Source of the DNA: Schmidtea polychroa
Taxonomy: Eukaryota
Length of the DNA: 64,000 nt
Direction of reading: 5' to 3'
NCBI GenBank assembly: GCA_044892525.1
Contig: CM097885.1
Location: 16,866,001-16,930,000, forward strand
The notes under the pieces were generated by a model. The model made no database searches, was not told where the DNA came from, and saw only the letters and a list, made by a program, of their open reading frames with translations. Both the position numbers and the translations under genes were made by a program. Position 1 is the stretch's first letter, and every line of letters begins with the position of its first letter. Positions 35,880 through 58,320 of the stretch are shown here, piece after piece.

Positions 35880-35897
35880 TGGTGAGCCCGACGTGAT
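35880..35897 (+). promoter_or_regulatory. Primer binding site, tRNA-Trp type
   Basis: TGGTGAGCCCGACGTGAT lies 4 nt after the LTR and is one mismatch from the classical tRNA-Trp PBS TGGTGACCCCGACGTGAT. Confidence 0.85.
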
Positions 35898-36435
35898 CTG
35901 AAGTCGGTGAAAATTTGTTGAAATTGTGAAAGTATTTGACTATAATATCGAACAATACAGGCGTGATTTGAAGTCGGTGAAAATTTGTTGAAATTGTGAA
36001 AGTATTTGACTATAATATCGAACAATACAGAAGTGATCTGAAAAGTGATCCAAAAATTGATCCAAAGTTGGTGAAAATTCGTTTAAAGTGTGAAAATATT
36101 TGATTGAAATATCGATTAATACTGACGTGATAAAAAGTTGATGAAAATTTGTTGAGATTGGGAAAGTATTGTAAATTGATAAAAGGTAAAAATACATATA
36201 TTAAAGTGAAAAATTTGATTTAAGAGTGGTGAATATTTTTGGAAAATTATTAAAGTGGTGATTTTATTTTTGAAGATTAGTGAAAATAATAATTGTGGAT
36301 ATTGATTATTGAAAAGTCAAAATTAAAACGAAAGGTAAACTTTGTAATTGTAATACTTTAAATTTTAGACGAGTAAAACCTGTGTTAACCAGATCATTTT
36401 ATAAATTGAGAAGCCAAAAACTAGTAGAGAATATA

Positions 36436-39129: not shown

Positions 39130-39977
39130 AGTAGAGAGAAGTGTGCTCCATGACTCATCGTTTTTTGTCATTTTTTTGCACTACCCCCCCCCCGATGACT
39201 CAGCGCAAAACAAAGACATATGACTCATCGATGACTCATCCATAGCAACAGCGGTAACTGGGTCAAGGTTATATGACTCATCCATAGCAACCGTGGTAAC
39301 CACGGTAACTAGGTCAAGGTCATTCTATTTTTAGTAACTAGGTCAAGGTCATTCTATTTTTAGTAACAATGTCACGTGACGTCATCGATGACTCATCAAG
39401 GTCATTCTATTTTTAGTAACTAGGTCAAGGTCATTCTATTTTTAGTAACTAGGTCAAGGTCATTCTATTTTTAGTAACAAGGTCATATGACTCATCATTT
39501 TTGGAACAAAGCCAACTGACTCATTATTAAAGTATGTATGACTCATCATTTTTTAAACAAAGACATATTTAATATTTAAATAAATACATTTAAACAAATA
39601 TTTAAATAAATACATTTAAACAAATATTTAAATAAATACATTTAAACAAAAATTTAAATAAATACATTTAAACAAATATTTAAATAAATACATTTAAACA
39701 AATATTTAAACAAAGACATTTAATCAAATATTTAAGTACATTTAAACAAAGACATATAGACAAAGACTCATCGATGACTCATAGTTTAGATAGGGGGTTT
39801 CTTTTTTTTTTGCATACCCCCCCCCCTTGTATGACTCATCGATGACTTTTTTGAACAAAGACCAATCATTTATTTTTAAAAGAAAGACTCATCACACGAC
39901 TCTAATTTTTAGAAGACTTCTTTTTTGGTAAACCAAAATTTATTGTATGTCGCTACAGAATAATAATAATAATAACA

Positions 39978-40058
<81 letters not shown>

Positions 40059-40414
40059 TTAATAATAATAATAATAAAAACATACCCATTTCTTCATAAA
40101 AAAGTTTGTTTTCATAAAATTTATTTCATAAATCATATAATTTGTTTTCATAAAAACTGGTTTCATAAAAAAAAAAAAATAAAAATTAATCATAAAAAAA
40201 TTTCATTATAAAAAAATTTAAATCATAAAAAAATAATAATTACCTCATTTGAAAAAGATGTACAAAGTATCGATAACATCTAACCAATCAGAATTGGATA
40301 TTATCGATGCTTTGTTCTCTGAATATGACTCATCGATGAGTCATTGTTACTAACTGAGTAATTTCTACTCACATAAAGACATGCAATACAAGTGCATGAA
40401 ATGTCTTTATGTAA

Positions 40415-40415
<1 letters not shown>
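39130..40415 (+). repeat. Left TIR (continues into an AAT tract)
   Basis: Reverse complement of 54715-55945, apart from a few substitutions, homopolymer and microsatellite length changes, and one 26-bp repeat unit. Confidence 0.95.
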
Positions 40416-40506
<91 letters not shown>

Positions 40507-40509
40507 TAA

Positions 40510-40606
<97 letters not shown>

Positions 40607-40780
40607 CTTAGAAAAATAGTAATCAACAAAATATATTTAAATTACAAATTTACAATTTTACATTGTCATTTTTACAAATGTCTGTTGCATTGATTGTTTC
40701 TTACAATCTTGGCTTCATTGACAACTATTAATAATAAAAAATAATAATTATAATAATAATTATTATTATTACCGAAATGA

Positions 40781-43700
40781 TCAGTAATCTTCTCCGTCAA
40801 AATTGTCGTCATCATCATATATAAAAGTGTCCCCTATCCGATAATGCCCATATGCCAAACTCTTGTTTTTCGATTTCCAATACCGCTTGTCATCTCTATT
40901 TGTCAGCGCCTTCTTAATGTTTTTTATGCTGTACAATTGATGATTTTTGGATGCAATGCGGAATTGTGGCACAGAGTAAACCTTATTGTTAAAATAACAA
41001 TCACGATAGGAATTGTGATCTAAGCCAGTATCTTTCAACGTGACAGATTTTGCTTTAAGAGTTTCTTTATCACCTAATAAGCTGTAACACTTGGGACGAA
41101 GAAACACCCACTCCTTATATCTCAATCCTTTATTCTCGTCTTTGAATTTTCCAATGACGGAATCTAGTGCTCTACTATATAAAGGATGTTGTGGGTTATA
41201 ATTAGATGTGTCAAGCAAGGAGTCACGAATCATGGCAGGTAAGAGAATGTCAAGACTACAATTTTTAATTTCCAAAAAGAAAGAGTCTGTATCACTAGCT
41301 ACTATATTAATTTCACAGTTAAACTCATCGCGATATTTTTGCAATTCATTATACTGCAACTGATACATTCTCAGTTTAGAAAGATCAAGTACAGTTTGCC
41401 CGATGTAGCTGGGCCTATCTAAACATACAGACTCTTTCATAAGCAAAACCGAAATCAAATCATCGTCTATCCTAGTAGATTTCTTAAATGCCGGTTTTGA
41501 GGCATATGTGATAAGTTTTTGTGCGGAATTGCACAGTCGTAAGTTAATACGTTTTTTCAAGTTCTCAACAGTTTTTCCATACAAACTGTTATTGAGCAAC
41601 TTGTAATAGTCTTTATCGAGCGGTGTTATGGATGCGGCTCGTAGTTGTGTGTTGGTATCTATGTATTTCTTGAAGACAGTGCTTTGTGTATACCTAATAG
41701 CCCTATGTACCTTGGTAACAACAACACCTAACTGAAGAAAGATTTGGAGAAGTCGCCAATGTAAAACATAGTGTGTTTTCGGATCGTGTGTAAGTAGCAA
41801 CTTCTCCACTTTAGAAAAAGGTGGGCACATCTTACCAGGAGCTACCGGAAAATCATCTAGTTTGTCATGGATAGATTTCGGTATTTTTAAATCTACTTCT
41901 ATAGTATAGCCATAATCAAGTTGATTTAAATCTTCCGTTGTGCACTCAATTAATAATCTCTCTAAAGCAATGTCATCAGTCACCCATTCAAAACCACCGT
42001 CGGGAAGCTTTTGTGATAAAGCCCATCCATACAGGTTGTTGATGTCAATATACAACAACTCTGTATTTTCATCACTACTAACAAAATGTTTATTCACAAA
42101 CGTTATCCCACCTCTAATCCCACCTTCAAAGAAATTATACATTTCCATGTCGGTGAGAAGCTCAATCGGTTTATCAAGACTTAACAAAGCAGAACTCCAA
42201 GAAAGACTGGGGATACCTAGGAAATTCAAAGGCTCAAGCCTATTATGAGCAATACTCTTAGCTCGGAATTGCTGAAAAAAGTCAGCCAACAGAAATACAT
42301 CTAATTTCAAATAGACCATCATATAATCCAAAAGGGAATTACATGATGTCTCTTGCCAGATTAGTTTTGCTTTATTGTATTCATCATCGGATACATCACT
42401 CCATTTAGGGGGCAATTCTAATGTAGAAATTAATACATCAAGGGAAGTTGCTACATCATAAGGGAAAATCCCTTTACTCTTAATAATAGACCCTCTAAAC
42501 TCAGATTCTGTCAAAGGTAATGTGTTAAGGGTTGAGACAGCATTTTTCAAAGACGAATTTACAAACTGACAAGAATCTATAAATTTCACAGTCAGGGAAT
42601 CAATATGCACAAAAAGAGATAAAAAATTTTCACTTGTCACCGGTATACAAGAAATATGCCAGGACTTATATTTAGCCAAGCCAAATTTGAGGATATGATG
42701 GAGATCATATCCTCTCAAATTATGAAAGACTACAGGTAGTGTGTGGTATATTTTCCTGGAAAGATTACAAGTGTTGCAAGCAGCACCAAGGAATTGACCG
42801 GTAAAGTGATCATGATCCCTGACTGGTTTAACTAATAATTTTTTACACAAATGACAGTTTGTGCTGTTATTAAAATTAATTTGGTCATTTTCTGTGAATA
42901 TCATTTTCTTATTTTTATTTTTATAATAATAGGGAGTTACAATCTTTTTAGCGATATCATTAATTTCTTTTAAAAATTCGTCTATACAAGAAAGGCCTAT
43001 GAATGATTTATAAAATTTTGCGCCTGTATTATTATTTATACATAAAAGTCCAGCCGAAATGGGTAAATGTTTCTGATAATATTTAGAATCTTTAGGAAGG
43101 ATTGCCTCAAAATCGGCATAAATAACAAAAGGAGGAGTAATCATTTTACTATAGTCTGTGAATTCTAATAATGGATCTTTTGGTAGTGTGTACATTGTGG
43201 TTCCTAATTGGTTTCGTTCACAAAGACCTTGATGTTTAATAAAACTATCTTCAAATCTGAATCCATTCAGACATCTAGGACACCACTTACAGTAAATACG
43301 AACAGAACTTATTGATGAATTTCGGCAATTAAGAAAGATGTTTAAATCAGATATAGCGACGTAATGGTAGGTTTTCCGATTCTGTAATAATAACAAATTT
43401 AGACAAGTACCTCCTACTATTTTACTGCGATAAATTATATCTATAAAAGGATGTTTCATGATGGGACCCGAAATTAACCCAGTTTCGTCATAACTTAAAA
43501 CATTAATTGAATAACCTGGGTTTTGTCGTTCAAATTTTGAGATATTTGATAATTTCATTGGCATATCTGCCGGGTTATATATCAGATCTGAAAGGTTATA
43601 AGAACTAGGCAGATGACGCAATTCATCAGGAGTACTATCATATTTTATAAGAGCCAAAACCGAGTAAAGGAAACAAAATTCGTCATCATTATTTACATTT

Positions 43701-44656
43701 ATTATACATTTTTTCCTGATTAATGTTTTCGGGGTTTCAATATATTTACGACCACTCAACCTACTAATCTTTGAATATTTTGTCACAATAAAACTAATGT
43801 ATTCTATTTTGTTAATGGTCCAATTACTTCCCTTTTCATTTATTTTACTAATTTTTTCATTTAAAAGAGAGATACCATCATCAATAAATGTGTCGCTCCA
43901 TACACGAGCAGAGTTTGAGATTATGAAAGACTGAAATTCATCATTTTTCTCAAACTCTACTTTAATACAAAATTGAATTTTTACTGATTTCATTTTATTT
44001 ACAATTTCTAACAATTTTTCTATGAGAACGTCAGGAACAGAAAGAATTTTACAATTCAAGGAAGATATATCCAACTTAACTATTACATGGGAACTATTCA
44101 GGTCGGAAACTACGTCGACTATACCACTACCTACTTGGGGTACAACATCACTATTTTCAAATTCACTATTTTCAAATTCACTATTTTCAAATTCACTATT
44201 TTCAAATTCACTATTTATAACTTCACTATTTATAACTTCACTATTTACAACTTCACTATTTACAACTTCATTACTTACAACATCATCGTCGTCTTCACTA
44301 ATGACTATTATTTCTTTCATCTTTTTTGTGGGAATTTCTGTGGGAATTTCTAAATGTCTTTTATTACCTATTATTCCTATTAATCTATTGACTGTTTCCA
44401 TTAATTGTCGATTTTGTATCAACATGGCATTAATCATACTTTTGTTGGTGGTCCTATTATTGATTTTTGTTGATGTTTCCATTAATTGTCGATTTTGTAA
44501 GTTTTCGGTGTTCCTATTATTAGTTGATGATATATATTTTTGATACGCAATTTTGAAAACTGATTTTTTAGAAGGCATATATTGGGTTAAATGATTACGA
44601 TGTTTATCATAAAATTTGGTATATGTCGATGTTTCAAGAGATGGCATGTAGGACAT
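40781..44656 (-). CDS. polB: Protein-primed family B DNA polymerase with endonuclease VII-like insertion
   Basis: Exonuclease motifs YADFE, FHNLRGYD, YLKLDV. Polymerase motifs YIDINNLYG, KLLNNSLYGK, SDTDS. Insertion CHLC...VRDHDHFTG...CNTCN. 15-bp tandem repeat (NSEVV/NSEFE) at about 44150-44280. Confidence 0.95.
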   Translation of the reverse strand: MSYMPSLETSTYTKFYDKHRNHLTQYMPSKKSVFKIAYQKYISSTNNRNTENLQNRQLMETSTKINNRTTNKSMINAMLIQNRQLMETVNRLIGIIGNKRHLEIPTEIPTKKMKEIIVISEDDDDVVSNEVVNSEVVNSEVINSEVINSEFENSEFENSEFENSEFENSDVVPQVGSGIVDVVSDLNSSHVIVKLDISSLNCKILSVPDVLIEKLLEIVNKMKSVKIQFCIKVEFEKNDEFQSFIISNSARVWSDTFIDDGISLLNEKISKINEKGSNWTINKIEYISFIVTKYSKISRLSGRKYIETPKTLIRKKCIINVNNDDEFCFLYSVLALIKYDSTPDELRHLPSSYNLSDLIYNPADMPMKLSNISKFERQNPGYSINVLSYDETGLISGPIMKHPFIDIIYRSKIVGGTCLNLLLLQNRKTYHYVAISDLNIFLNCRNSSISSVRIYCKWCPRCLNGFRFEDSFIKHQGLCERNQLGTTMYTLPKDPLLEFTDYSKMITPPFVIYADFEAILPKDSKYYQKHLPISAGLLCINNNTGAKFYKSFIGLSCIDEFLKEINDIAKKIVTPYYYKNKNKKMIFTENDQINFNNSTNCHLCKKLLVKPVRDHDHFTGQFLGAACNTCNLSRKIYHTLPVVFHNLRGYDLHHILKFGLAKYKSWHISCIPVTSENFLSLFVHIDSLTVKFIDSCQFVNSSLKNAVSTLNTLPLTESEFRGSIIKSKGIFPYDVATSLDVLISTLELPPKWSDVSDDEYNKAKLIWQETSCNSLLDYMMVYLKLDVFLLADFFQQFRAKSIAHNRLEPLNFLGIPSLSWSSALLSLDKPIELLTDMEMYNFFEGGIRGGITFVNKHFVSSDENTELLYIDINNLYGWALSQKLPDGGFEWVTDDIALERLLIECTTEDLNQLDYGYTIEVDLKIPKSIHDKLDDFPVAPGKMCPPFSKVEKLLLTHDPKTHYVLHWRLLQIFLQLGVVVTKVHRAIRYTQSTVFKKYIDTNTQLRAASITPLDKDYYKLLNNSLYGKTVENLKKRINLRLCNSAQKLITYASKPAFKKSTRIDDDLISVLLMKESVCLDRPSYIGQTVLDLSKLRMYQLQYNELQKYRDEFNCEINIVASDTDSFFLEIKNCSLDILLPAMIRDSLLDTSNYNPQHPLYSRALDSVIGKFKDENKGLRYKEWVFLRPKCYSLLGDKETLKAKSVTLKDTGLDHNSYRDCYFNNKVYSVPQFRIASKNHQLYSIKNIKKALTNRDDKRYWKSKNKSLAYGHYRIGDTFIYDDDDNFDGEDY

Positions 44657-45612
44657 AACAAGTATGTTACACTTTTATATTCATGACCATAATATTTTTC
44701 CATAATATCGTCACAGTCATGATGTGTAACACTGTTACAAAAGGTTGGATATTTATAACCTATAAAATAAGTAAAATAGTATTATTATCAAAATTATTAT
44801 TATTATTATTATCAAAATTATTATTATTTATTATTACTATATAATCTGAGTTTATACGACAAAATATTCTGTCCCTCCCTTGCTCATAAGTGTATTATAT
44901 TTAAATTTATTTTAATTAAATAAAAACATATTCATTTTCTTTATAAAAATTAATTTCATTATTTGTTTCATAACAAAATTGACTTCATACATTTTCTTTA
45001 TAACAAAATTGACTTCATATTAATTTAAAAAATCATAATAATTTAAAGTAAATTAATTTAAAAATCATAATAATTTAAAGCATATTAATTTTAAAATTTT
45101 AAAAAACCTACATTTAGGTTTCTTGCACGCGAGATTGTGTACAGCATTATTTACTAAAAAATCATAATAATAATAATAATTTAAAAATTAAATTTACCAT
45201 AATTTCCGGAAACATTATTTTCAATTCCATTACTTGCTGAAAAATTATAAGTTCCCGAAACATTATTTTCATTAATGTAGACTAAAATATAAATAAAAAT
45301 AAAAACATATTAAAAAAAAAAATTACCCATACGATTTCTTCGAATAATTTCCTTGATTTCATTTGAAATATTTTGCATTTTGAATAAATGAAAAAGAATT
45401 ACAAAAACATAGATTATATATGTAACGTTTATCCAATCAAAATGCAGATAGGATAGAAAAAATTAACGCACACATATTCATGTCTTTGTTTAAAAAAGAA
45501 TGAGTCATCGATGACTCACATAGTAACAAATAATGTCTTTGTTACTCACATAAAGACATGCAATACAAGTGCATGAAATTTGTTGATATGAATAATAAAA
45601 TTAATTAATAAT

Positions 45613-45672
<60 letters not shown>

Positions 45673-45694
45673 CTTGTGACATTTAATACATTTA

Positions 45695-46079
45695 TTAAAC
45701 AAAATTATACATTGATAACAACCATGCAAGGCAATGTTGGCCACAAGTAATTGAAAATGGATTTTGATACCGAGTTCGATTATATACAATAGGTTTACCA
45801 ATAGTTTGCAATTTACTAATTAATAAATTTGGGTAATAATATCCAAAGGGATCGAATGCATATACTCGGTTTGGTTTCACATATACAGCAATCCAATGTT
45901 CACCTCCTAAACTAGATGTATGAGTATTGACGATTATGGCTTGATTATTTCTCAAATATGGAATTTTATCCAGTGGATAAACTCCAAGAAATTCGTTTCC
46001 CAATAATTGAGTACCAATTCGAGACACCTGAATAGAACTAATCAATAAGTTAAATTATAAAATAAAAATCTTACTCCAT
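45695..46079 (-). CDS. Adenain-like cysteine protease (probably with a 37-bp intron 46038-46074)
   Basis: NT...GEHW, FDPFG and YQ....TCGQHC catalytic motifs. ATG GA|GTAAGA...TTAG|T TCT gives MDSIQVSRIG. Confidence 0.88.
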
Positions 46080-46109
46080 AAAAAACTTTAATCTTTTAAA
46101 TTTCTTCAT

Positions 46110-47336
46110 TTATACTAGTACAGTTCGATTTGCAGTAATTTGGATTTCATTTTCAAAAACCCCATAGATTATTACATGGACTGGTTCAGTAGTTGCTTTA
46201 CCGAACTTAATATCCAATCTCAAATTGCCACTTTGAGGTAATTGACTTTGATTTAAATCAAAATCTGGAGCCAGAACAAATGTGAAAAATGGATAGAATG
46301 TTTTGAATTCTTCCAGACTTATACCACAATTAAGATTTTTATCCAAATATCCTAAATTTCTGACAAGACTTTGCATATATGAAGTACAATAATTATCATT
46401 ATCAAAATCTTGAGTATAAGTTTCTCGATAATCAGTATTTTTCGATAATGAAAGAGAAGTTACACTAAAGTGTTTGAATTTTGATGAAGATGTATCATAA
46501 GATCCGTTATATTGAGCTTCACTTTGAAAAGTTACAAGGATAAAATTAGGCATTCTTCGATCTCCAAATATTTGGTCCTTGTAAAAAGATGATGCTCCTT
46601 TAGCAATTGCAAATGATACAATTTCTTTTGTTTTTATCGGATAAATTGCATGTTTGGTATTTAATCCAATTTGATGTCCCGCTAATACAGACGATTCACA
46701 TCGAACTCTTCGAACCATTAATTTGGCATCGAGTAATATTAATTTAGGTGCTGCACCTGCAACTCCAGTTGATAATGACAATGCAGAATCAGATCTTTTC
46801 AATCTCATATGTACATTAACACCTGGTAGTAAATATTTGGGTTGATCCATAAAATCCAATTGTAGAGATGAACACATGTTGAAAGTTTTTGAGCCTTTAA
46901 TCCACTTTTTTCGATCATCAGATACACCATATCCCATTGGAGTTAGACAAGTATCTTTAGTATCATTATTATAATTTAAAATAGTTTCGATAATTGCCTT
47001 GTGAGCATATGTATTGTTTCCACCCTCAATTTTAATGTTATTAAATCCAAGAATAACATCTTTAAAGAGAGTATGAAACAAGAAATTATTAGGTTCAGTT
47101 GTATCATCTGCAGCTAATGCTTTATTGTCTTTATCTACAACTTTTATTTGAACATACAACAAAGTATCGTTCAAATCTAAATATTCTGTTTGAGAACCAT
47201 TAATGTAAAATTCCACATCATTTCTACTATCGGTAATAGAATTCATTGGAAATACATCTTCAAATGCTCCATATTCGATAACCGCCTGAGGCGATGGTCG
47301 ATCAAATAGACATAATTCAGATTTACCGCAAATCAT
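46110..47336 (-). CDS. Major capsid protein (double jelly-roll)
   Basis: 408 aa with Polinton MCP-type motifs KSELCLF, YLDLNDTLLYV, HTLFKDV, QPKYLLPGV and GNLRLDIKF; position within the element fits. Confidence 0.88.
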   Translation of the reverse strand: MICGKSELCLFDRPSPQAVIEYGAFEDVFPMNSITDSRNDVEFYINGSQTEYLDLNDTLLYVQIKVVDKDNKALAADDTTEPNNFLFHTLFKDVILGFNNIKIEGGNNTYAHKAIIETILNYNNDTKDTCLTPMGYGVSDDRKKWIKGSKTFNMCSSLQLDFMDQPKYLLPGVNVHMRLKRSDSALSLSTGVAGAAPKLILLDAKLMVRRVRCESSVLAGHQIGLNTKHAIYPIKTKEIVSFAIAKGASSFYKDQIFGDRRMPNFILVTFQSEAQYNGSYDTSSSKFKHFSVTSLSLSKNTDYRETYTQDFDNDNYCTSYMQSLVRNLGYLDKNLNCGISLEEFKTFYPFFTFVLAPDFDLNQSQLPQSGNLRLDIKFGKATTEPVHVIIYGVFENEIQITANRTVLV

Positions 47337-47722
47337 TCTTCAAATATGGTTCCGTGTCCTTTCATTCGTTTGTTTATATGCCTTCTCCCTCTCTTGCGTT
47401 TAGTTCCCATACTTGTTTTAATTTCACTTTCAAATTTACGTTTTACTGGTACCAGTGCTGGTTCAGTTTTAAACATACCAGGTATTACTTTACTTATTTC
47501 AGCAATTGCATTTGATTTCAACGATGGTAATATTTTCTTGTCATTCATAATTACATCTTTTGCAGTTTTCATACCGAAATTACCAATACGTTTAAGAATT
47601 GGTAACGCAAATCTACCAATTGTTCTCAACCACCCACTTCCGTACTGTTTACCAACAAAATATGGTAATTCGCCACCACTTTGGCTACCACTATACATAC
47701 TAATAATATCAGAATTAGCCAT
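47333..47722 (-). CDS. Small basic core-like protein
   Basis: QSGG and QYGSG motifs, amphipathic WLRTIGRFALPILKRIG and an Arg/Lys-rich tail; lies between penton and MCP. Confidence 0.7.
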   Translation of the reverse strand: MANSDIISMYSGSQSGGELPYFVGKQYGSGWLRTIGRFALPILKRIGNFGMKTAKDVIMNDKKILPSLKSNAIAEISKVIPGMFKTEPALVPVKRKFESEIKTSMGTKRKRGRRHINKRMKGHGTIFEE

Positions 47723-48734
47723 CTACTTTACGAAAATGTAGTGTCAAATGAGTTTTTGAATCTTTTGCAAATTCGATTAATTGACCAGAATCATCTCTTA
47801 TATTTATTTCTATATTGTTTATACAGGATGTTGAAACAGGCAAATACATGGGATTTTCTACATTGATTTGTACAACATCATCTTGTTCATGTTTCTCAAC
47901 CCAAATAGATTTCAATAGAGGAACCAAAGAATCACCAACAATTATGGGTTCAATAATATTAGTATAGAGAAACATTTGATGATGAAGTTTAATTATTTTC
48001 GGTTTATTCATACCTACATTTAATTTTCCATCTTGAATATATGTTCCTTTTGATAATCCTAATGTTTTTATTAGATTTTTATCAAAAGTAATTTCAGTAA
48101 TATCAGTATTCAAACTGAATTTGAACAAAGTATTGTCTACTAATTCCAATGATTTAAATATTGATCCACAATTCTGAATTAAATATGATTGTAATTCCTC
48201 CAATTTAGAAATGTATAAATTCTCATTAAACGTATATGTATTTTCAGTTTCACCCTCAAACTCAACTTTCATTGAAATTGTCTCATATCGCGCTGCTACT
48301 TTGGTAAATCTCGGCCGTAGTACTTGGAATATATTAGTATGATTTCTATTACTCTGACTTGTTAATTCCAATCGTTTTGCCATTGCTAAACTATCAAATT
48401 TTATAGTAAAGGGATGATATTTACATTCAACTATTAAATATTGACGATCAATATACATTTTGACAATTGAATCGGAAGGACCAATATCAATTCGATCTTC
48501 TACATTATCAATGACAAAAGAGATATTTCTTTGCGTCTCTTTCTTTTTATATTCAATTTTAGCTTTACTATAAATTGGAAAGAGATTGTACACAAATGTA
48601 AAGTCAAGGAGAGCAACTTCCCAATTACCATTTAAATAAATCGGATTTTGGAGATTGACCATAAATTTACTGGCAGTGTTTTCTGGATGTATATTCGGAC
48701 AACTATTCCTTGGCAAAATAATGTAAAAATTCAT
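47715..48734 (-). CDS. Minor capsid protein (penton)
   Basis: MNFYIILPRNS...PENTASKF...L.GNWEVAL N-terminus. YTNIIEPIIVGDSLVPLLK...YLPV...IEINIRDDSG...LHFR C-terminus. Confidence 0.85.
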   Translation of the reverse strand: MNFYIILPRNSCPNIHPENTASKFMVNLQNPIYLNGNWEVALLDFTFVYNLFPIYSKAKIEYKKKETQRNISFVIDNVEDRIDIGPSDSIVKMYIDRQYLIVECKYHPFTIKFDSLAMAKRLELTSQSNRNHTNIFQVLRPRFTKVAARYETISMKVEFEGETENTYTFNENLYISKLEELQSYLIQNCGSIFKSLELVDNTLFKFSLNTDITEITFDKNLIKTLGLSKGTYIQDGKLNVGMNKPKIIKLHHQMFLYTNIIEPIIVGDSLVPLLKSIWVEKHEQDDVVQINVENPMYLPVSTSCINNIEINIRDDSGQLIEFAKDSKTHLTLHFRKVDG

Positions 48735-49371
48735 TTTACGAGGTCTCGAGACGATATCCATGATGGGTTTTTATATCCATGCCATTTGACATAGTATTGT
48801 TTATCCTTACCCACCATTTTAGTTTTCAATATTTTTTGAATTCTAAATACTTTTGGGGGAGGAATGACTTGTAATTCTTGCTCATAAAATTTCCCTTGTA
48901 CAATGTTATTTTCAGAATCTCTGATGACATACATCACAGGGTTCTGGCTAGTATTTATTTTCGAAATTACAAAGACTTCATCACTCCAATTTGTATCGAA
49001 ATTTTTAATAAATGGTGATGCACTAATTTTACTAATTCTAACATGGTCACCAACTTTATATTTCGGTTTTGTACTTTTTTTCAGATTTTTTAGAATAGAA
49101 TGTTTTTGATGTGATATCAACCGGTCTCAATCCATTAAGTCCTCGATGTGATGAATTATTATAACTGGTTATAATTTTTGGTAAAACCAATACCCATTTT
49201 TTATTACCTTGATACACGAACAATTTCTTTAATCTATCTCTCAAGGTTCTGTTAAATCTTTCAACATGAGCAGCTTTGTATTGAGAATGTACCGAGTAGT
49301 GATTTATTTTCAGTTTATCGAGGATTTGCTTAACTTTACTGTTGTAGAATTCTTTACCTAAAATAATAATA

Positions 49372-49458
<87 letters not shown>

Positions 49459-49846
49459 CTAAATCCGTTTGTAAATTATTAGGATGTCCATTTTTAAATA
49501 AAATATTAATAGCTTTGGACATTTCATCTGCAGATTTTGACTTGACTGGTATTGCTCGTGCAAACCTGCTGTATACATTAATACACGTTAAAATATATTT
49601 ATACCCCTTGTTAATTTTTGAATAGGGTATCATCTCCATCAAATCCATTTGCCACAAATCATTTATTCCATATGTTTTATACGCTCTTGTTGGAAATCTT
49701 TTCTGCATTGGTTTGTTCAAACTGTACGCTAGTTGATTTGATAACCACTTCTGGGTTTCTTTTTTCGAATTCGGAACTCTTTTCTTTAATTTTGCCACTC
49801 CACCGAAACCGGCTTCGTCTTCTGGGTTCGTCCAAATCTTCTCCAT
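48731..49846 (-). CDS. Retroviral-like (rve) integrase with C-terminal chromo-like domain; one intron (49358-49458) and one frameshift (~49105)
   Basis: WQMDL, spliced QTDLG|KEFYN, KAAHVERFNRTL, KYKVGDHVRISK, YYVKWHGY...SWI. Confidence 0.9.
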
Positions 49847-49901
49847 TACAACAGGAAGATTTAAAATTCAAATTAAGATTTGGTAATGATTGACCCATTG
49901 T

Positions 49902-50393
49902 TTATGATGATGATTTTAATAAACCTGCCCCTCCCAATAAAGATAATGCTATTGGTATCAAGGCTGCAATGAAGCCTCCTTGTTGTTTATATATGATTTT
50001 ACGCATACGTTTTTTATTTTTAGTATTTACTAATGATAATAATGGTTTCTTGTGTCTGTTCAAAATCTTTTTATTTGATGTACTTATACGGAATTTACCT
50101 TTAACAACTTTAATTAAAATAGCAAGTAAATCATCAATAACATAATTTGGAAAAGACTGTAAAATATTCATTCTTCTCATACTGGGAGCCTTAAGTAATG
50201 CAATGAAAAACGGAAAACTACGATGAGAATTACTCGGCGGAATATGATTACTCGGTGGAATACGATTACTCGGCGGAATATTATCAATAAGCAATTTTTT
50301 CGATGGTGTGAAACTAGTTTTTGGTGGAATCTTAACCACTTTTGCAGGTTTCCTTCTTGTAGGTTTTGTCTTTACACGAGTTTTTAGTAACAT
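49902..50393 (-). CDS. Basic Polinton structural protein with hydrophobic C-terminal peptide
   Basis: Lys/Arg-rich, ending QQGG-FIAALIPIALSLLGG; typical small conserved Polinton ORF next to the ATPase. Confidence 0.7.
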   Translation of the reverse strand: MLLKTRVKTKPTRRKPAKVVKIPPKTSFTPSKKLLIDNIPPSNRIPPSNHIPPSNSHRSFPFFIALLKAPSMRRMNILQSFPNYVIDDLLAILIKVVKGKFRISTSNKKILNRHKKPLLSLVNTKNKKRMRKIIYKQQGGFIAALIPIALSLLGGAGLLKSSS

Positions 50394-50414
50394 GATTGAT
50401 AATTTATTTTGGTT

Positions 50415-51038
50415 TTATCTTTGTTTATATACTATAGCTCCTTCCTTGTTAAATATATCTGTTCTTACTCGTAATTCATCAGGACACTGTTGTGTAAAAT
50501 CTAGAAAAATATATCCATGTGGGGATTTTGTTGCATCGACAAATGCATTCATTAAGAAATTTCGATTATTTGGATATGCTTGCCTTGCAAGAAAGTCAAT
50601 CACTGTAGCATCTCTCGGATTTTTGAAAACAACTAAATATTGAACATTCAAATTACGAGTTCGGTGAGATCCACCTTGATGAAAAAGATTTTGAGTGATA
50701 AAAATTACAGTGACACCTTTATGTCTACTAATTTTTGTAAACAAATTATTAAAATCCTTTTCTTTATTTGCTTCTTGATATAAATCATCAATAATAATCA
50801 CATCACCCTGTCGTAATCTAGATGACCAGTTTTTATCGAACCCTTTTATGATTGTCATTTTGATTTTACAAAACTGATCTTGCGTCATTCCGCTTTCATC
50901 ATCAGCTCCCCTATGCCAATAAATTTTATTAAATTTTGACTTGAATAATTTTGATTGTAATAATTTACAAACAAACAATGTTTTCCCGCTACCACTCGGG
51001 CCAACGATTTGGTATACTGCATCATTTCTTAATTGCAT
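50415..51038 (-). CDS. FtsK/HerA (A32-like) packaging ATPase
   Basis: Walker A GPSGSGKT, Walker B IIIDD, SRH..VTVIFITQNLF, FKNPRD, PHGYIFLDF. Confidence 0.93.
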   Translation of the reverse strand: MQLRNDAVYQIVGPSGSGKTLFVCKLLQSKLFKSKFNKIYWHRGADDESGMTQDQFCKIKMTIIKGFDKNWSSRLRQGDVIIIDDLYQEANKEKDFNNLFTKISRHKGVTVIFITQNLFHQGGSHRTRNLNVQYLVVFKNPRDATVIDFLARQAYPNNRNFLMNAFVDATKSPHGYIFLDFTQQCPDELRVRTDIFNKEGAIVYKQR

Positions 51039-51146
51039 TTTTTATTTTTAATTTTAAAATATCTAGTTATTGTTTATATTAGATGATTTTAATGAACTCT
51101 TGCTAAAGTTGTATATAAAGAGTAAAATTTCATAAATGACTTAATT

Positions 51147-51584
51147 ATGCTTGCAAATATAAATTATCGAGGAAATTTTGATGTTTCAAAAATGAGGTTC
51201 CCACCAGGAAAACCACAGCAAATTGTCGATAGAAGCGGGAAATATCCGATAATATTTTTCAAGACTGGCAAATGCAGAATTATGGGATGTAAGGAACCAT
51301 TGGATATTAATAAATTACAATATCGAATCAATAATATTAAAATTCAATCAATTACCGTTACTATGGATATGGGACATACTATCAATTTATACAAAATATC
51401 GAGAAAATGTGATTGTATGTTTGAACCGGAATTGTTTCCGGCATTAAGACTATTAAAATATAACCCTATATGTGTCAATGTGTTTTCAAGTGGAAAGGTT
51501 GTCATGCTTGGGTTGAGAAATTTAGACTATAGGGAATTTGTTAACAATGTTCGGAATGAGTTAAATTCATTGGTCGATTTCTAA
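51147..51584 (+). CDS. TATA-binding-protein (TBP)-like protein
   Basis: Two TBP half-repeats: IIFFKTGKCRIMG and FEPELFPALRL...VNVFSSGKVVMLG. TATA-like GTATATAAAG about 35 bp upstream. Confidence 0.85.
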   Translation: MLANINYRGNFDVSKMRFPPGKPQQIVDRSGKYPIIFFKTGKCRIMGCKEPLDINKLQYRINNIKIQSITVTMDMGHTINLYKISRKCDCMFEPELFPALRLLKYNPICVNVFSSGKVVMLGLRNLDYREFVNNVRNELNSLVDF

Positions 51585-51659
51585 TTGGTTAATTTCTAAT
51601 TGGTTAATAATAATAATATTAACTGTTTAGATGTCATTAATGCTAGCGCGGCAAAATCA

Positions 51660-51982
51660 ATGTCTGAGATCGATAATTACGGTAAATTTTTAATTTATAT
51701 ATATTTTTTATATATTTTATAGATGAATATTCCAAAGTGATGTTAAATTGCCTCAAGTATTTCTATCCTCAATTGAATGAAATTCTGAAGGACAGGGATC
51801 CAGAGATTATACCAGATTTGGTATACAATGCAACAAGAATCTGGATGTTCGATATATTAAATCAATTCCAATGGGATATCAAGATCGACAGAATGCAGAA
51901 AGAAATGGAATATCCATGTATCATTGGATGCAGTTGGTCGTTATCAGCGATATGTAGAATGGAATTTAGTAAAAACACTTAG
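51660..51982 (+). CDS. Hypothetical two-exon protein (intron 51682-51722)
   Basis: ATG...TAC G|GTAAAT...TATAG|AT GAA joins in frame with ORF 51737 (MSEIDNYDEYSKVMLNC...). Confidence 0.6.
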
Positions 51983-52072
51983 AAGATATTACTATTCTAG
52001 GATTGTTGATTTAAATTAATAAATATTTTTTATGTATTTTGTTTTTTTTTTTTTTATATATTGATGACCAAA

Positions 52073-52125
<53 letters not shown>

Positions 52126-52352
52126 TAATAATAATAATAATAATCATACATGTGCAACATTAATGCAATTTAAACAAAGACACATTAATGCAAACCATGT
52201 GCAACATTGATGCAATTTAAACAAAGACATGTGCAATACAAATGCAAAGCATGTGCAACATTGATGTAATTTAAACTTTAATCTGATTGGTTGTTCCATT
52301 TATTTTGAAGGTATAAAAACCCTGTACCATTTCATTTTAATCATAATTCACG

Positions 52353-52760
52353 ATGGTCAAGAAAAGCACTGAAAAACCGAAAGATGAACTTGTTCAGCCT
52401 GTTCAAATGTTCCACAACTACAAAATGTATTTTTTAAAAGAAGAAATCAATATGAAATTGGTTGCACCGGTCAAGTTAATTCCAACTCAATTTCAATTCT
52501 TATCCGGCACGCTTTCAATGGTAGATGTTAAAACCATAGATGATGTTTTCAAACGGTTGAATTCAAATCTATCATGTAATCAAAATGCATGGTTCAACAA
52601 CCGATATGCAAAATTTTATGATGCCTTTGATGAAATCAGTTTCAAAGAAAACGAAAATTGGTATATAACAATTGCAATCCAAGGATATAAAGTCGATAAT
52701 AATGATGTGTATTCTCCAATTTGGAAAATTATGTCTGCTAGGCTTTCACAACTATTTTAA
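52353..52760 (+). CDS. Hypothetical 135-aa protein (possibly beta-barrel/SSB-like)
   Basis: Clean ORF with CCAAT (CTGATTGG) and TATAAAA upstream and AATAAA downstream; the fold guess is weak. Confidence 0.6.
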   Translation: MVKKSTEKPKDELVQPVQMFHNYKMYFLKEEINMKLVAPVKLIPTQFQFLSGTLSMVDVKTIDDVFKRLNSNLSCNQNAWFNNRYAKFYDAFDEISFKENENWYITIAIQGYKVDNNDVYSPIWKIMSARLSQLF

Positions 52761-52912
52761 TGTATTTAATAAATGTATATAATGTATTTTAATAAATGTA
52801 TTTAATGTATTTAATCTTATTTATTTTATTAATATTAATGCAACAGTAATGCAAATTTAACAAAGACATTCTATAAACAAACTTACATTATAGTTTAAAA
52901 GTGTTAATAAAA

Positions 52913-53329
52913 ATGACTACAGAAAAAGGTTAATTTTGATTAATAACTTACCGAATTATTTATTATTTAGAAATTGTAATCAACTTTTTGTTGGAAAAAT
53001 TGGCAGAAATAGCTGGTGTAAATGTTGAGGATATATTATCTGTTGCAAATGCATTAAATATAGGCTGGATAGTTGAAAGTCAAGATTCAGGATTTGATGA
53101 AAGTGAAGTGAGTCAAGAAACTGATGTAGAAATTGATGGAGAAAACACCCAAGAAATTAGTGAAAACACCCAAGAAATTAGTGAAAACACCCAAGAAATT
53201 GATGGAGAAAACACCCAAGAAATTGATGGAGAAAACAATCAAGAACAACCTAACGATTGTATAGATCATGTAGTTGATAATATTATGAAATGTGGAGATG
53301 ACTATTGTGAATGTGTTAATAAATGTTAA
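52913..53329 (+). CDS. Hypothetical acidic two-exon protein with 21/24-bp repeats (intron 52929-52970)
   Basis: ATG ACT ACA GAA AAA G|GTTAAT...TTTAG|AA ATT is in frame with ORF 52988. Contains ENTQEI repeats and a Cys-rich end. Confidence 0.6.
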
Positions 53330-53371
53330 ATTTTAAATTTTGTTTTTTATACATAAGAAAAATAACAAAAA

Positions 53372-53558
53372 TTAATATTTATTTAAATATTTAAATAACA
53401 TATACAATAAAACAACTCCTGTTGTGAGTTTAATATAGTTTTTCATTTTTCTTTTGATTTCATCAGTTTCTTTAGCATTGCGGGCGAGTTGATTGAGTAT
53501 ATCCCATCCGCCATTATCTTCTATCCATGGACTAAACTTGGATTTGATTATCTAAAAA

Positions 53559-53613
<55 letters not shown>

Positions 53614-53914
53614 TTACTTCTAAAGACCACTGATAATAATGTTCTGAGTCATGTTGGCTTTTCGCAATGATTATCTTCATGTAGGTGAACCCTACAATAA
53701 TTCTTGTCCATTTCATGTCTTCATCGCAGAGACATTGAAATATATTGTTAAAATAATTCTTCTTTGATTCAAGACAATCCATATCAAGCATTCTCTGGTA
53801 GTCGATATGGTTGCCTTCAATAATTTGTTCGGTCCGATTGACCAGGAAATTGAGGCTGTCGACTATATTCGCTGTGACTAGTCCATTTAGAACGTTTTCA
53901 ATAAATTTAGACAT
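53372..53914 (-). CDS. Bcl-2 family protein, two exons (53618-53914, 53372-53551), 158 aa
   Basis: BH1-like KWTRIIVGF. The intron GAA|GTAAAT...TTTAG|ATA restores BH2 PWIEDNGGWD and the tail anchor LTTGVVLLYMLFKYL. Confidence 0.85.
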
Positions 53915-54023
53915 TTTTTACAATAATTTTTAATATACTGTCTTATTTATACTACTGTGTGTGTAATATGATTCTGATTGGTTGATAGACTATAAATGTA
54001 AAACATAATAGATTTGATACAAC

Positions 54024-54524
54024 ATGAAAACTATATTTCTATTGCTAATTATTATAAGGAGTGTGTGCTCACACAATACGACAATAACGGTGGAGTCTTT
54101 TAATAAATCAATATGTATTTGTCCAAATACCGCCAAGTTGATGGATATTTTATATATTCTTGACAAACCAAAATGGGCAAAGCATCCAGGAAAAAGAATA
54201 TCCCAAAGATTGGAGAATTTAGAAAACAGCTATGACCTATCTTTTGAATATATACAAAATATAAAATTTAAATTGATTGATCATATTGAGGTTTTCAATA
54301 ACTCAATTGTTGAAAATAAAAAGAATATGAAAATTATTGATAAGAAACATGAACATTTGTTAAGAAAGATTGATTTAATAATATTCGAAATTCGAACAAT
54401 AAAAGAATCGATAGAAAATTTGAAAACCAATTCAACGTTACCAATTTCAAACAAGATGGCAGCAAATATGAGTACATCAATATTTAAATGGCCATTGTTA
54501 ATTTTAAATTATTTCATTGTTTAA
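54024..54524 (+). CDS. Hypothetical secreted/surface coiled-coil glycoprotein
   Basis: Signal-like MKTIFLLLIIIRSVCS, several N-x-S/T sites, heptad-rich middle and hydrophobic C-terminus. Confidence 0.6.
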   Translation: MKTIFLLLIIIRSVCSHNTTITVESFNKSICICPNTAKLMDILYILDKPKWAKHPGKRISQRLENLENSYDLSFEYIQNIKFKLIDHIEVFNNSIVENKKNMKIIDKKHEHLLRKIDLIIFEIRTIKESIENLKTNSTLPISNKMAANMSTSIFKWPLLILNYFIV

Positions 54525-54625
54525 TAAATGTATTGATTTAAATTATCTTTTGTCTGATATATTATTATTATTATTGGCATAAATATTATTAATTTAATTA
54601 TTATTATTACTAGTATTGTCATAAA

Positions 54626-54714
<89 letters not shown>

Positions 54715-54715
<1 letters not shown>

Positions 54716-55067
54716 TTACATAAAGACATTTCATGCACTTGTATTGCATGTCTTTATGTGAGTAGAAATTACTCAGTTAGTAACAATGACTCATCGATGA
54801 GTCATATTCAGAGAACAAAGCATCGATAATATCCAATTCTGATTGGTTAGATGTTATCGATACTTTGTACATCTTTTCAAATGAGGTAATTATTATTTTT
54901 TTATGATTTAAATTTTTTTTTTATAATGAAATTTTTTTATGATTAATTTTTATTTTTTTTTTATGAAACCAGTTTTTATGAAAACAAATTATATGATTTA
55001 TGAAATAAATTTTATGAAAACAAACTTTTTTATGACGAAATGGGTATGTTTTTATTATTATTATTAA

Positions 55068-55124
<57 letters not shown>

Positions 55125-55945
55125 TGTTATTATTATTATTATTCTGTAGCGACATACAATAAATTTTGGTTTACCAAAAAAGAAGTCTTCTAAAAATTAG
55201 AGTCGTGTGATGAGTCTTTCTTTTAAAAATAAATGATTGGTCTTTGTTCAAAAAAGTCATCGATGAGTCATACAAGGGGGGGGGGTATGCAAAAAAAAGA
55301 AACCCCCTATCTAAACTATGAGTCATCGATGAGTCTTTGTCTATATGTCTTTGTTTAAATGTACTTAAATATTTGATTAAATGTCTTTGTTTAAATATTT
55401 GTTTAAATGTATTTATTTAAATATTTGTTTAAATGTATTTATTTAAATTTTTGTTTAAATGTATTTATTTAAATATTTGTTTAAATGTATTTATTTAAAT
55501 ATTAAATATGTCTTTGTTTAAAAAATGATGAGTCATACATACTTTAATAATGAGTCAGTTGGCTTTGTTCCAAAAATGATGAGTCATATGACCTTGTTAC
55601 TAAAAATAGAATGACCTTGACCTAGTTACTAAAAATAGAATGACCTTGACCTAGTTACTAAAAATAGAATGACCTTGATGAGTCATCGATGACGTCACGT
55701 GACATTGTTACTAAAAATAGAATGACCTTGACCTAGTTACTAAAAATAGAATGACCTTGACCTAGTTACCGTGGTTACCACGGTTGCTATGGATGAGTCA
55801 TATAACCTTGACCCAGTTACCGCTGTTGCTATGGATGAGTCATCGATGAGTCATATGTCTTTGTTTTGCGCTGAGTCATCGGGGGGGGGGGTTATGCAAA
55901 AAAATGACAAAAAACGATGAGTCATGGAGCACACTTCTCTCTACT
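54715..55945 (-). repeat. Right TIR
   Basis: Inverted copy of 39130-40415. Confidence 0.95.
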
Positions 55946-55951
55946 AGAACT

Positions 55952-56520
55952 TTATATGAAATAAAGAAATATTTAGTGAGGTTAGAACAAGATGTAGACG
56001 AAACTAAGGACGTTTTGAAACTTCTCGTTAAAGCAGTATATTCGATGTTCGAAATAGAGATAGAAGTAGAGGATGAACTAAAAGGAGTAGTTAAAGAAAT
56101 GAAAAATAGACTGCCTGAAGTAGTACAGAAATTTGGCGAAGAGGATACATTTTGCGAGAGATCAGTAATTGAAAATTTAACAAAAATTGAAATTAACAAG
56201 GATGTGATAATAACAGCTTTAACTTATATTGTTTTAGAAATTGGAACGTATGCGTTCGCGAAATCAGATAAATTAGATAACTTGATAGACATCGGTGCCA
56301 GACTAGTAAACGAATATCTAATGAACTGGGTAAAGGAAAATGGTGGTTGGAGAACACTGTGTTTGTCTCTAACAGAAAAGAAAAACGAGAAACAAGAGAG
56401 GAAACCACCTCAAAAACGAGTCAATGAGAGAGTTCGACCAGAACTGAGAAAAACTATGATATTTCCGTGGGCAATGTTTATGATGATTACATTTTGTGCA
56501 ATAATTACGCAGACATCATC
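55952..56520 (+). CDS. Polyprotein part 2: Bcl-2-like domain plus hydrophobic signal/anchor
   Basis: In frame with Gag across the TSD (VRT|LYEIKK). BH2 NWVKENGGWRTL, degenerate BH1 INKDVIITALTY, then hydrophobic MIFPWAMFMMITFCAII. Confidence 0.75.
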
Positions 56521-58320
56521 ATTAGTTGCATATGATTGCTCCCAAACTGAAATGGGAAAAATTTATTCAGTAGTTGATATGTCGGAATACCCAGGTGCGT
56601 ATCCTAGTAAACTGAAAATAGAAAATGATATAAAATATTACGTGTATCAAGAGTCTGATTTACGAAGAACTCAAGTAAGAGAGTGTATTGTCAAACATAC
56701 AACATTTGTATTCTATTGTGACAAATGGAGTCATACGTCACTTATAAAAATGCATGCGATACCTAGACCAGTTGAGGTACTCCCAGAAAACTGTCTAACA
56801 GCATTTCAAACCGGAGAATTAAAAATAAGTCCGGAAATTCGTTTAAAGGAAAATTGAATCATAGGATACGAGAAACAATAATTGTAAAAGGAGTTATGAA
56901 AGCAAATGGCGATTGTGAAGGTGAACCATACAAAATGAATGGTAAAATTGTTCAGCACACAGTTGTGATGGAAGAATATCTCACAGAGTTAAGAGAGTTC
57001 GAAGGAGCTTTCGACGATGATACGGGAAAGCTACAAACACATCCATTCTGTAATATGAAACAAACAAATTGTCAAACGGGGGAATCGATTCTTGTCTATA
57101 ATGTCGAAACCAATAAGTGTAATTTAGCACACTTAAAAACTATGAATTTTAAAGAGCTAGTGGGAGAACAGTTTAGAGATAAACCTGATAGTTTTAATAC
57201 GAAATATAGACCAAATGATACTATTAAGTCAACTCCAATATGGACAAAACAAATGGGAACAGTTTTAATGTCTACATTACCAGAAGATGGCATGCGATTT
57301 GTAAAAAAGGAAATCACCTACAAATGTGGTCGAATGGTGTATGTAACAAATTATAAAGGCGTTTATGTGTCTAGAAATGTTGTGGAAGAGGCAAAAATTA
57401 AAATTCACAGAGATGATATTAAACTTACTCATTATTTTAATAATAAAATTGATTATTTGTTTCATTTTAGTCAAAACATCATGGAAAATGTATATAGAGA
57501 AATGATTCTAAACGATTGCAAGCTGAACAAAGAGATTCTTCGAAATCGAATGGCGATGGCAATTACGAATCCAAATTTAGTAGCACCTATGCTAATATCA
57601 GAAAGTGGCGTGTTTGCGAGAATTTTTGGAGAAGCGTTATACAGTTACAAATGCAAAGAAGTCTCAGTGAAAATTACTAAATATGAAAAATGCACAAACG
57701 AACTACCAGTAAGCCTCGGTGGAAAGATACGATTTATGGAACCGATAACTAGAATTTTGCTTGATGAACAAACTAAACCAAAGATTTTACAATGTAATAG
57801 ATTATTAGCACCCTTATACCGATTAGCAACAGATTCATGGATAGCTTTACCAGACTATCGTGGAGTCAAGACTCCAGACAAATTAGAATCAACAAATCTA
57901 GAATACCTGATAAATTTCACATCATTAAACAAAATGGCACAAATGGGTTTGTACCCAAGCGAGGATATTGAAGAAGCTCAAAGAAATTTGTTGTTTTCAT
58001 CCAAGAAAGAACGAGTAATTTCAGAAATGATTGACACGATATTATCGAATGGGGAAGGAAAAGTAAATTACGAGTATTTGCTAACACCTGATCATTTCAA
58101 ACGAGCTACATACAAAACGATGGAAAAGATTTGGGGTAAGTTCATGTTTTTGGGACAAGCATGTGCAGGCTTAATCGGAATTTACGTAATCGTGATAACA
58201 GCAAAGGTGATAGTGTCACAGATATTATCAGTACATCGAATATATGCAATATCTGGATGGTCATGGAAATTGATTATTGGCTGTATTCCATTGTTGGCCA
58301 GATTCTTTATTACAGATCAT
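56521..58320 (+). pseudogene. Polyprotein part 3: chuvirus/gB-like class III fusion glycoprotein (one frameshift ~56850)
   Basis: LVAYDC, VRECIV...FYCDKWSH, GDCEG, DCKLNKEIL...GEALYSYKC...CTNELPV...FMEPITRIL...C, followed by TM segments. Confidence 0.75.

Follow-up and report, generated by a model that had tools for sequence, protein, structure and literature searches.

A predicted Bcl-2-fold domain between Gag and Env of a Burro-type retroelement in Schmidtea polychroa, and its relation to the Bcl-2-like gene of a nested Polinton

A 64,000-nucleotide stretch of Schmidtea polychroa contig CM097885.1 (assembly GCA_044892525.1, positions 16,866,001 to 16,930,000; hereafter the window) contains a Gypsy-type retroelement that is split by a Polinton. 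An initial annotation proposed that each of these unrelated elements carries its own Bcl-2-like domain and that the pair says something about how the host defends itself. The locus raises the questions of whether the retroelement stretch is a Bcl-2 domain at all, whether the two domains were captured independently, and what the retroelement would gain from one. The features on which the analysis rests are as follows.

34940..35875, forward strand: 5' LTR of the Gypsy (Burro-type) element, from LTR comparison and a 4-base target duplication
36313..39129, forward strand: 5' part of the polyprotein with Gag, CCHC zinc knuckles and a ubiquitin-like domain, from Pfam and translation
39130..55945, no strand assigned: Polinton/Maverick inside the retroelement, from terminal inverted repeats, a 6-base target duplication and Pfam
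53372..53551, reverse strand: Polinton Bcl-2-like gene, exon 2, with BH2 and a hydrophobic C-terminal tail that runs to the stop
53552..53617, reverse strand: predicted phase-0 GT-AG intron with a (TTA)n tract
53618..53914, reverse strand: Polinton Bcl-2-like gene, exon 1, with a BH1-like KWTRII (Pfam Bcl-2, E = 0.0045)
55946..56374, forward strand: predicted Bcl-2-fold domain of the retroelement polyprotein, from Pfam, a 7-row profile, an AlphaFold2 model and structure matches
56195-56206, forward strand: degenerate BH1 position (NKDV) of this domain
56324-56350, forward strand: BH2 of this domain
56375..56455, forward strand: charged linker whose length differs between families (in 12 rows, BH2 and the hydrophobic stretch lie 21-50 residues apart)
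56456..56521, forward strand: hydrophobic stretch, likely an internal Env signal peptide, predicted also to tether the Gag-Bcl-2 part upstream to the membrane
56522..58320 (end approximate), forward strand: Env, a class III (gB/rhabdovirus/Monjiviricetes-type) fusion glycoprotein, from Pfam PF24664
58740..63633, forward strand: protease, RT, RNase H, integrase and a 3' extension with two hydrophobic stretches, from Pfam RVP, RT_RNaseH and rve

The polyprotein of the retroelement reads, in order, Gag, CCHC knuckles, ubiquitin-like domain, Bcl-2 domain, hydrophobic stretch, Env, protease, RT, RNase H, integrase and 3' extension. An uninterrupted copy is ~16.7 kb long and has a 3437-aa frame. This one-polyprotein Gypsy LTR layout (Gag-Ubl-BCL2-Env-PR-RT-RH-IN) is that of the Burro elements, the giant size of >30 kb is not reached, and by layout the window element is a compact relative of Burro elements. 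A class III Env between Gag and Pol, its ectodomain flanked by the likely signal peptide and a transmembrane segment, also gives it the GAG-ENV-POL arrangement of gB-type errantiviruses. Pfam matched zf-CCHC (E = 5e-8) and, below the cut-off, ubiquitin (E = 0.0015) in the 5' part, and PF24664 in Env (E = 6e-13 and 1.6e-65). The Env of another copy scored 0.95-0.96 to viral glycoproteins in Atlas, and a search for Env in viral contigs gave no match. The 3' LTR lies outside the window, ~8.8 kb past its end; because the 5' LTR and the downstream LTR (in L208) differ by just 8 mismatches in 868 aligned bases and a gap, the insertion is young. The window copy is dead, with its frame interrupted at 39129 by the Polinton, its Env frame broken near 56.8 kb, and several stops and frame breaks in Pol.

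Several further features of this element and of the window were recorded. A stretch after the 5' LTR (35880-35897, forward strand) is like a primer-binding site and resembles what we take to be the complement of the 3' end of tRNA-Trp. The 3' extension after the integrase (62014-63633, forward strand), with its two hydrophobic stretches, has no Pfam match, and uninterrupted copies have an additional 496-aa frame behind it. A young 9.3-kb Burro derivative (L213/L214, L188, L179, L174; LTRs 99.7% alike) is without Env and most of Pol and retains Gag, the Bcl-2 domain and the hydrophobic stretch; its 1323-aa frame continues into a piece like the 3' extension, and many similar rows were found. Elsewhere in the window are a small Gypsy-type element of two frames whose 152-base LTRs are identical (21724-26427, forward strand) and a 360-codon frame (1301-2383, reverse strand), the C-terminal part of which resembles an RMI1-type OB fold.

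The Polinton has terminal inverted repeats of ~1.4 kb that start with AG and are 94% identical over 1445 columns, microsatellites included. Pfam matches to rve, Pox_A32 and TBP identify genes for an integrase, a packaging ATPase and a TBP-like protein (the last at 51126-51584, forward strand, E = 3e-16), and no polymerase match was returned by Pfam on the Polinton. The labels pPolB and capsid-like are our assumption from motifs and position; with pPolB so assigned, the element has the full Polinton/Maverick set of inverted repeats, 6-base duplication, integrase, packaging ATPase and pPolB. Upstream of pPolB, another short GT..AG stretch (45154-45197, reverse strand) may be a further Polinton intron, and a fragment of another Polinton (10645-11142) is 84% identical to the capsid-gene region of the nested one.

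The Polinton sits just before the Bcl-2 domain, which in the window copy is severed from Gag, and the initial annotation considered the resulting pairing of two Bcl-2 carriers the notable part of the locus. The pairing proved to be one insertion among many. The two flanks are adjacent in 29/29 other retroelement copies examined. Among 20 other Polinton copies, 16 had a recognisable end; three of these had Burro-like or Gypsy coding DNA at the end or within 365 bases of it, in different places, and four more had LTR-element fragments 445-960 bases away. The occurrence of Burro and other LTR-element DNA beside several Polinton ends, at differing places, indicates that such nesting is common and not aimed at the Bcl-2 domain, and targeted nesting was rejected on these grounds and on the 29 empty sites. 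The best explanation of the nesting is a young Polinton insertion that inactivated this retroelement copy and has no functional meaning.

The motif NWVKENGGWRTLC on which the Bcl-2 proposal was built is present in the window, NWVKENGGW starting at 56324 within the frame 55850-56857, and helices are predicted before it. The Polinton terminal repeat fills the frame upstream of 55946, so the domain proper is taken as 55946, where the target-site duplication lies, to ~56374. The domain of the initial annotation is real, with a true start slightly earlier than given there; the hydrophobic stretch lies behind it, and Env begins at 56522. A stand-alone gene was considered and rejected, as the domain continues the Gag frame that the Polinton interrupts. 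Sequence comparison by itself supports the Bcl-2 identity weakly. The Pfam Bcl-2 profile (PF00452) scored the window domain at 17.9 bits (E = 0.0047), below the curated cut-off of 31.4, and a related Burro family at 28-33 bits. The best sequence match among solved structures had E = 0.0021, a profile built from seven related domains matched Bcl-2 at E = 3e-4, and all 14 rows of a mixed alignment matched Pfam Bcl-2 at E ≤ 0.1. A search among longer proteins passed 0/577 candidates, and a representative protein library yielded two matches, a repeat protein taken as spurious (P0001) and an 82-aa Burro-like piece (P0002).

By predicted structure the stretch is clearly a Bcl-2-fold domain. An AlphaFold2 model made from an alignment of element-borne rows only has eight helices (pLDDT 73.7) in a bundle around a central hydrophobic helix. 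When the model was compared with 48,161 chains using VIA-align, ranks 1-35 were all of the Bcl-2 fold, with a best Z of 13.9 (rmsd 2.9, 129 residues aligned), and the top-scoring other fold reached Z 5.3. Foldseek gave zero matches to this model at E ≤ 0.001; the rows listed were all Bcl-2 or Bcl-xL, the best being Bcl-xL at E = 1.1e-3. The language-model neighbours of the domain were clusters of BID, Bcl-2-like 14 and Bcl-2-like 15, and pro-survival members were not among them.

The hydrophobic stretch follows the Bcl-2 domain but runs on into Env and does not end the protein; the hydrophobic tails of host and Polinton Bcl-2 proteins begin 14-25 residues past BH2 and end 1-7 residues before the stop. 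In all 12 rows compared, 7-8 residues separate the end of the stretch from the AYDC-type motif with which Env begins; basic residues precede the stretch and 0-1 follow it, and the Pfam profile of stand-alone viral glycoproteins begins at position 5 inside it. The fixed spacing to the AYDC motif and the profile start inside the stretch indicate that it behaves as the Env signal peptide, which it likely is. From what is known of signal-peptidase topology, it would then remain attached to the Gag-Bcl-2 piece and act as its tether. Of the double use that had been proposed for this stretch, the spacing supports the signal peptide, and the part as Bcl-2 anchor is one that we infer.

The domain is widespread. 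All 150 candidates scored, out of 1475 at first look, matched at 83-100%, giving at least 150 copies, many of them in frames of ~3437 aa. Further Burro families, found in searches with Pfam families and P0002, have 19-57% identity to the window domain. BH2 (W-x4-GGW) is kept in all 15 Burro rows, across which the W, the GGW and core residues are invariant. The Trp of the BH1 signature NWGR is present in none of them, as against 7/7 Polinton and 9/10 host rows, and the BH1 Gly position is occupied by Asp, Glu or Asn. Mutagenesis of Bcl-xL indicates that such changes in BH1 would impair BH3 binding; the viral BH3 binders F1L and M11L are likewise without the BH1 sequence. Between subfamilies, dN/dS of the domain was 0.11-0.38 with an upper interval below 1 in five of nine pairs, three of the others being too close to inform and one saturated. 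Env values were 0.05-0.18, so that the domain's are 2-4 times those of Env (the L192/L188 pair was excluded from this comparison because L188 is without Env). As judged from these substitution ratios, the domain evolves under purifying selection.

The Polinton gene, said by the initial annotation to lie about 2 kb away, is real (53372-53914, minus strand, 2.03 kb distant), and the two domains are as dissimilar beyond BH2 as had been stated, with 18% identity over 102 columns and 13/93 identical positions outside BH2. GT..AG was found at the intron site in 30/30 copies (L031-L060), spanning 34-89 bases and in 19/30 not a multiple of 3, and diverged Polinton families have another GT..AG sequence at the same codon boundary. 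The (TTA)n-bearing segment is likely an intron, and the alternative of a gene broken by a microsatellite was rejected on the strength of the 30 conserved GT..AG pairs. No joint spanning the predicted intron was seen in contigs of four runs, in a search that skipped the intron repeat. At least 150 copies of the gene were scored, copies of the window's family exceed the Pfam cut-off, and exon 1 has a dN/dS of ~0.1 in two of three pairs, the third being saturated. The model available is of an intronless Polinton family (L083) that differs from the window's gene, from an alignment that contained host rows; it has pLDDT 67.6, ranks 1-32 of its matches are Bcl-2-fold, and the best has Z 10.3, rmsd 3.0 and 109 residues aligned. 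Structure matches thus agree with the proposal that both domains are Bcl-2-like, for the retroelement domain itself and for this Polinton family.

The nearest host relative of the Polinton gene is the single-copy L072, at 32% identity (43% for the intronless family), which is 89% identical to the S. mediterranea 'Bcl2-like protein' C9WPR4, its orthologue. A query with the host gene found Polinton copies at up to 45%, with 138/138 rows in frames <200 aa and none in a long polyprotein frame. These comparisons are best explained if the Polinton took its Bcl-2 from the host 'Bcl2-like' paralogue and the gene evolves separately. Two additional Polinton families with Bcl-2 were recorded, the intronless one (L083-L088, L215/L216; 43% to the host gene) and one with an intron at the same site as the window's (L205, L217/L218); in both, the gene adjoins TBP-like and pPolB genes.

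Whether the elements made one capture or two was examined in trees of 32 rows (15 Burro, 7 Polinton, 10 host; L203, which did not fit the intron pattern, was not included), which are unrooted and without a non-planarian outgroup because the alignment search gave two S. mediterranea proteins only. A recent transfer between Burro and Polinton is refuted by the 18% identity and the separate radiations of the two and was rejected. All 15 Burro rows fall on one side of the tree (99/94 full length, 96/91 core). An ancient transfer from element to element, by which the Burro and Polinton genes would share an element-borne ancestor, is improbable. The best all-row trees set the host Bcl-2-like gene, not Burro, beside the Polinton genes (93/92 full length, 84/89 core); a short deletion and a BH1 W-[ST]-[RK] are common to the Polinton genes and the host gene and absent in Burro, and Polinton-host identities are in the 27-43% class against 14-21% for Polinton-Burro. 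A Burro+Polinton clade was nevertheless not rejected (p-AU 0.26 full length, 0.13 core), no branch separates the Polinton+host group from all other rows once three long rows are omitted, and Polintons do insert into Burro DNA. Burro and Polinton also have residues in common, namely a helix-5 Tyr (13/15 Burro, 7/7 Polinton, 2/2 rows of the L072-type host gene, 0/8 other host rows) and a Pro before the BH2 Trp (4/15, 7/7, 2/2 and 0/8, respectively).

Two captures are accordingly favoured by a wide margin of belief, and whether both drew on the same host lineage is evenly balanced. In the core tree one branch parts Burro, Polinton and the L072-type host gene from the remaining eight host rows (87/84, or 79/95 when the three long rows are omitted). 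This grouping is not rejected by the full-length data (p-AU 0.48), and the helix-5 Tyr and the Pro before the BH2 Trp are in line with it. The Burro domain may come from the same host lineage as the Polinton gene; since long branches meet in these trees, this is a weak lead. Independent capture, as first proposed, holds in so far as the two domains do not stem from one recent transfer; it is less secure in that a Burro+Polinton clade was not rejected and one host paralogue could have served both. A splice donor GT follows directly after GGW in the host genes L068 and L072-L075 and is absent in the Burro and Polinton copies compared. It is also missing after GGW in host L061, and L069/L071 read NGWN; with two host Bcl-2 genes lacking this donor too, intron loss alone is no proof of capture through RNA. 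L061-L067 are seven near-identical copies of a bcl2-2 orthologue within 0.9 Mb of contig C4, with no donor after GGW.

What the domain may do is most readily explained, at a probability of roughly 60%, as follows: captured long ago from a host Bcl-2 gene, it would be kept inside the Gag-Env-Pol polyprotein as a membrane-tethered suppressor of host cell death. The polyprotein would be made at the ER, where the hydrophobic stretch would send Env into the lumen and be cut off Env by signal peptidase. Staying as the tail of the Gag-ubiquitin-like-Bcl-2 piece, it would hold the Bcl-2 domain on the cytosolic face of the ER or of Env-bearing membranes. There, while particles are being produced, the domain would damp signals of death or stress, probably by a route other than the canonical BH3 groove. 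This reading is based on the domain's place between the ubiquitin-like domain and Env, its presence in many families, purifying selection, the missing host BH2 intron and the loss of BH1 NWGR. Given that loss, a block of apoptosis by the retroelement domain is something we infer. The replaced BH1 residues in 15/15 rows count against it, as do an ER signal-anchor that would miss the mitochondria, where such proteins usually act, a dN/dS above that of Env, a Pfam score under the cut-off, and language-model neighbours that include no pro-survival members. When the domain was modelled together with a Bak-type BH3 stretch of the host, with no alignment used, the score was 0.04 against a mark of 0.34, which speaks neither for nor against binding. 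Contigs of run X1 cover the Burro domain, and this coverage is no sign of transcription.

The same loss of BH1, with BH2 and core helices retained, would also fit a Bcl-2 fold kept without a role in apoptosis, either as a non-groove interaction scaffold, in the manner of the poxvirus inhibitors of innate NF-kB signalling A46, A52 and B14, or as a matrix-like spacer connecting Gag with the membrane that bears Env. In every case the domain is joined to Gag on one side and to the Env signal peptide on the other, and the ubiquitin-like, TRAF-like and IAP-type cargo suggests control over signalling. The model, however, is closer to BH3-binding Bcl-2 proteins (Z 12-14) than to A52, A46 and B14 (Z 6.5-7.6), although a shared fold shows no function, and BH3 binding without the BH1 sequence has the viral precedents named above; we regard this as a possible but clearly less probable account than suppression of cell death. 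That the domain is a neutral passenger, kept merely so that the polyprotein stays in frame, is already disfavoured and very improbable: the families do diverge strongly and the domain has a higher dN/dS than Env, but dN/dS in the informative pairs, the invariant W, GGW and core residues, and a model that is still of the Bcl-2 fold all stand against it.

The initial annotation went further and took the nested pair as a reflection of cell death being a main defence against transposons in this host. The genome does contain at least three element-borne death-regulator families, including two Bcl-2 kinds under purifying selection, and by sequence apoptosis-type cargo is common in its elements. This claim nonetheless did not hold up well and is unlikely. 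Of the 30 copies examined, one shows the nesting, which disrupts the element that was entered. Both elements resemble viruses, and viruses ordinarily carry genes that counter cell death. The documented defence is PIWI/piRNA silencing: in the portion of PMC8532177 consulted, LTR elements and Polintons are the main SMEDWI-2 piRNA targets in S. mediterranea, and their de-repression gave no sign of DNA damage. The third regulator family (L161-L172, L222) numbers at least 150 copies. Its BIR-RING (IAP-type) frame of 392-393 aa adjoins a TRAF-like frame, lies downstream of one resembling RNase H/integrase, and fits published Burro1-type cargo.

A more specific scenario for the whole locus can be put forward tentatively. 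Two unrelated virus-like elements would have taken the same planarian Bcl-2 paralogue, which in the Polinton became a near-canonical tail-anchored gene with a new intron. In the retroelement it would have been fused into Gag, lost its BH3-groove signature and been hung on the membrane by the Env signal peptide, yielding a Gag-linked Bcl-2-fold effector with a non-canonical target. If both elements did draw on one host paralogue, that paralogue would be a choke point of planarian cell-death control exploited by mobile elements.

Bcl-2 cargo is already in print for both kinds of element, so the finding itself adds little, and the expectation that anti-apoptotic cargo of planarian retroelements was known is confirmed by the literature. 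The available text of PMC6431247, describing Grohme et al. 2018, gives S. mediterranea Burro elements as Gypsy-like LTR elements with one polyprotein (Gag-CCHC-ubiquitin/SUMO-like-BCL2-like-Env-PR-RT-RH-IN), a BCL2-like motif in Burro-2, -3 and -4 for which interference with host apoptosis was proposed, and an in-frame Env related to mononegavirus fusion glycoproteins; the term 'signal peptide' is absent from that text. The window element is like these in polyprotein layout and in-frame Env. The published Burro exceeds 30 kb and encodes 4,873 aa (PMC6431247), compared with the ~16.7 kb and 3437 aa of an uninterrupted window-type copy, and the window copy differs further in being broken and Polinton-interrupted and in having no Pfam match to BIR, MATH or ankyrin in its polyprotein frame. 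Smed_errantivirus_1 of S. mediterranea (GAG-ENV-POL with an HSV/gB-type Env, listed span 14.8 kb; PMC13524379) has a similar gene order, and its printed Env stretch matches the window Env at 65/78 residues counted by eye; 'Bcl' and 'Burro' do not occur in the main text as available. The part of PMC11410931 consulted holds nothing further on element cargo, and a literature search to which Grohme et al. 2018 and its extended data did not belong found no paper on Burro-domain function or a shared donor gene. Smed-bcl2, which we do not equate here with C9WPR4, is required for cell survival (PMC3566077, in the text available).

Bcl2 and IAP homologues have been reported in adintoviruses (Polintons/Mavericks), according to the accessible text of PMC8502044. 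The window Polinton shares with them Bcl-2-like cargo in an animal Polinton and differs in that its host source gene can be named (the C9WPR4 orthologue) and in the new intron of most families. The retroelement domain has the predicted fold of the viral Bcl-2 mimics A179L, KsBcl-2, CNP058, BHRF1 and GIV66 and of poxvirus M11L, N1, A52 and A46 (Z 6.5-13.1), and is like them in its low identity and degenerate BH motifs. Those mimics are stand-alone genes of large DNA viruses, whereas the retroelement domain is an internal polyprotein domain whose tail is likely the Env signal peptide. A Bcl-2 fold tethered in this way inside a Gag polyprotein would be an untried design, open to planarian RNAi and expression assays.
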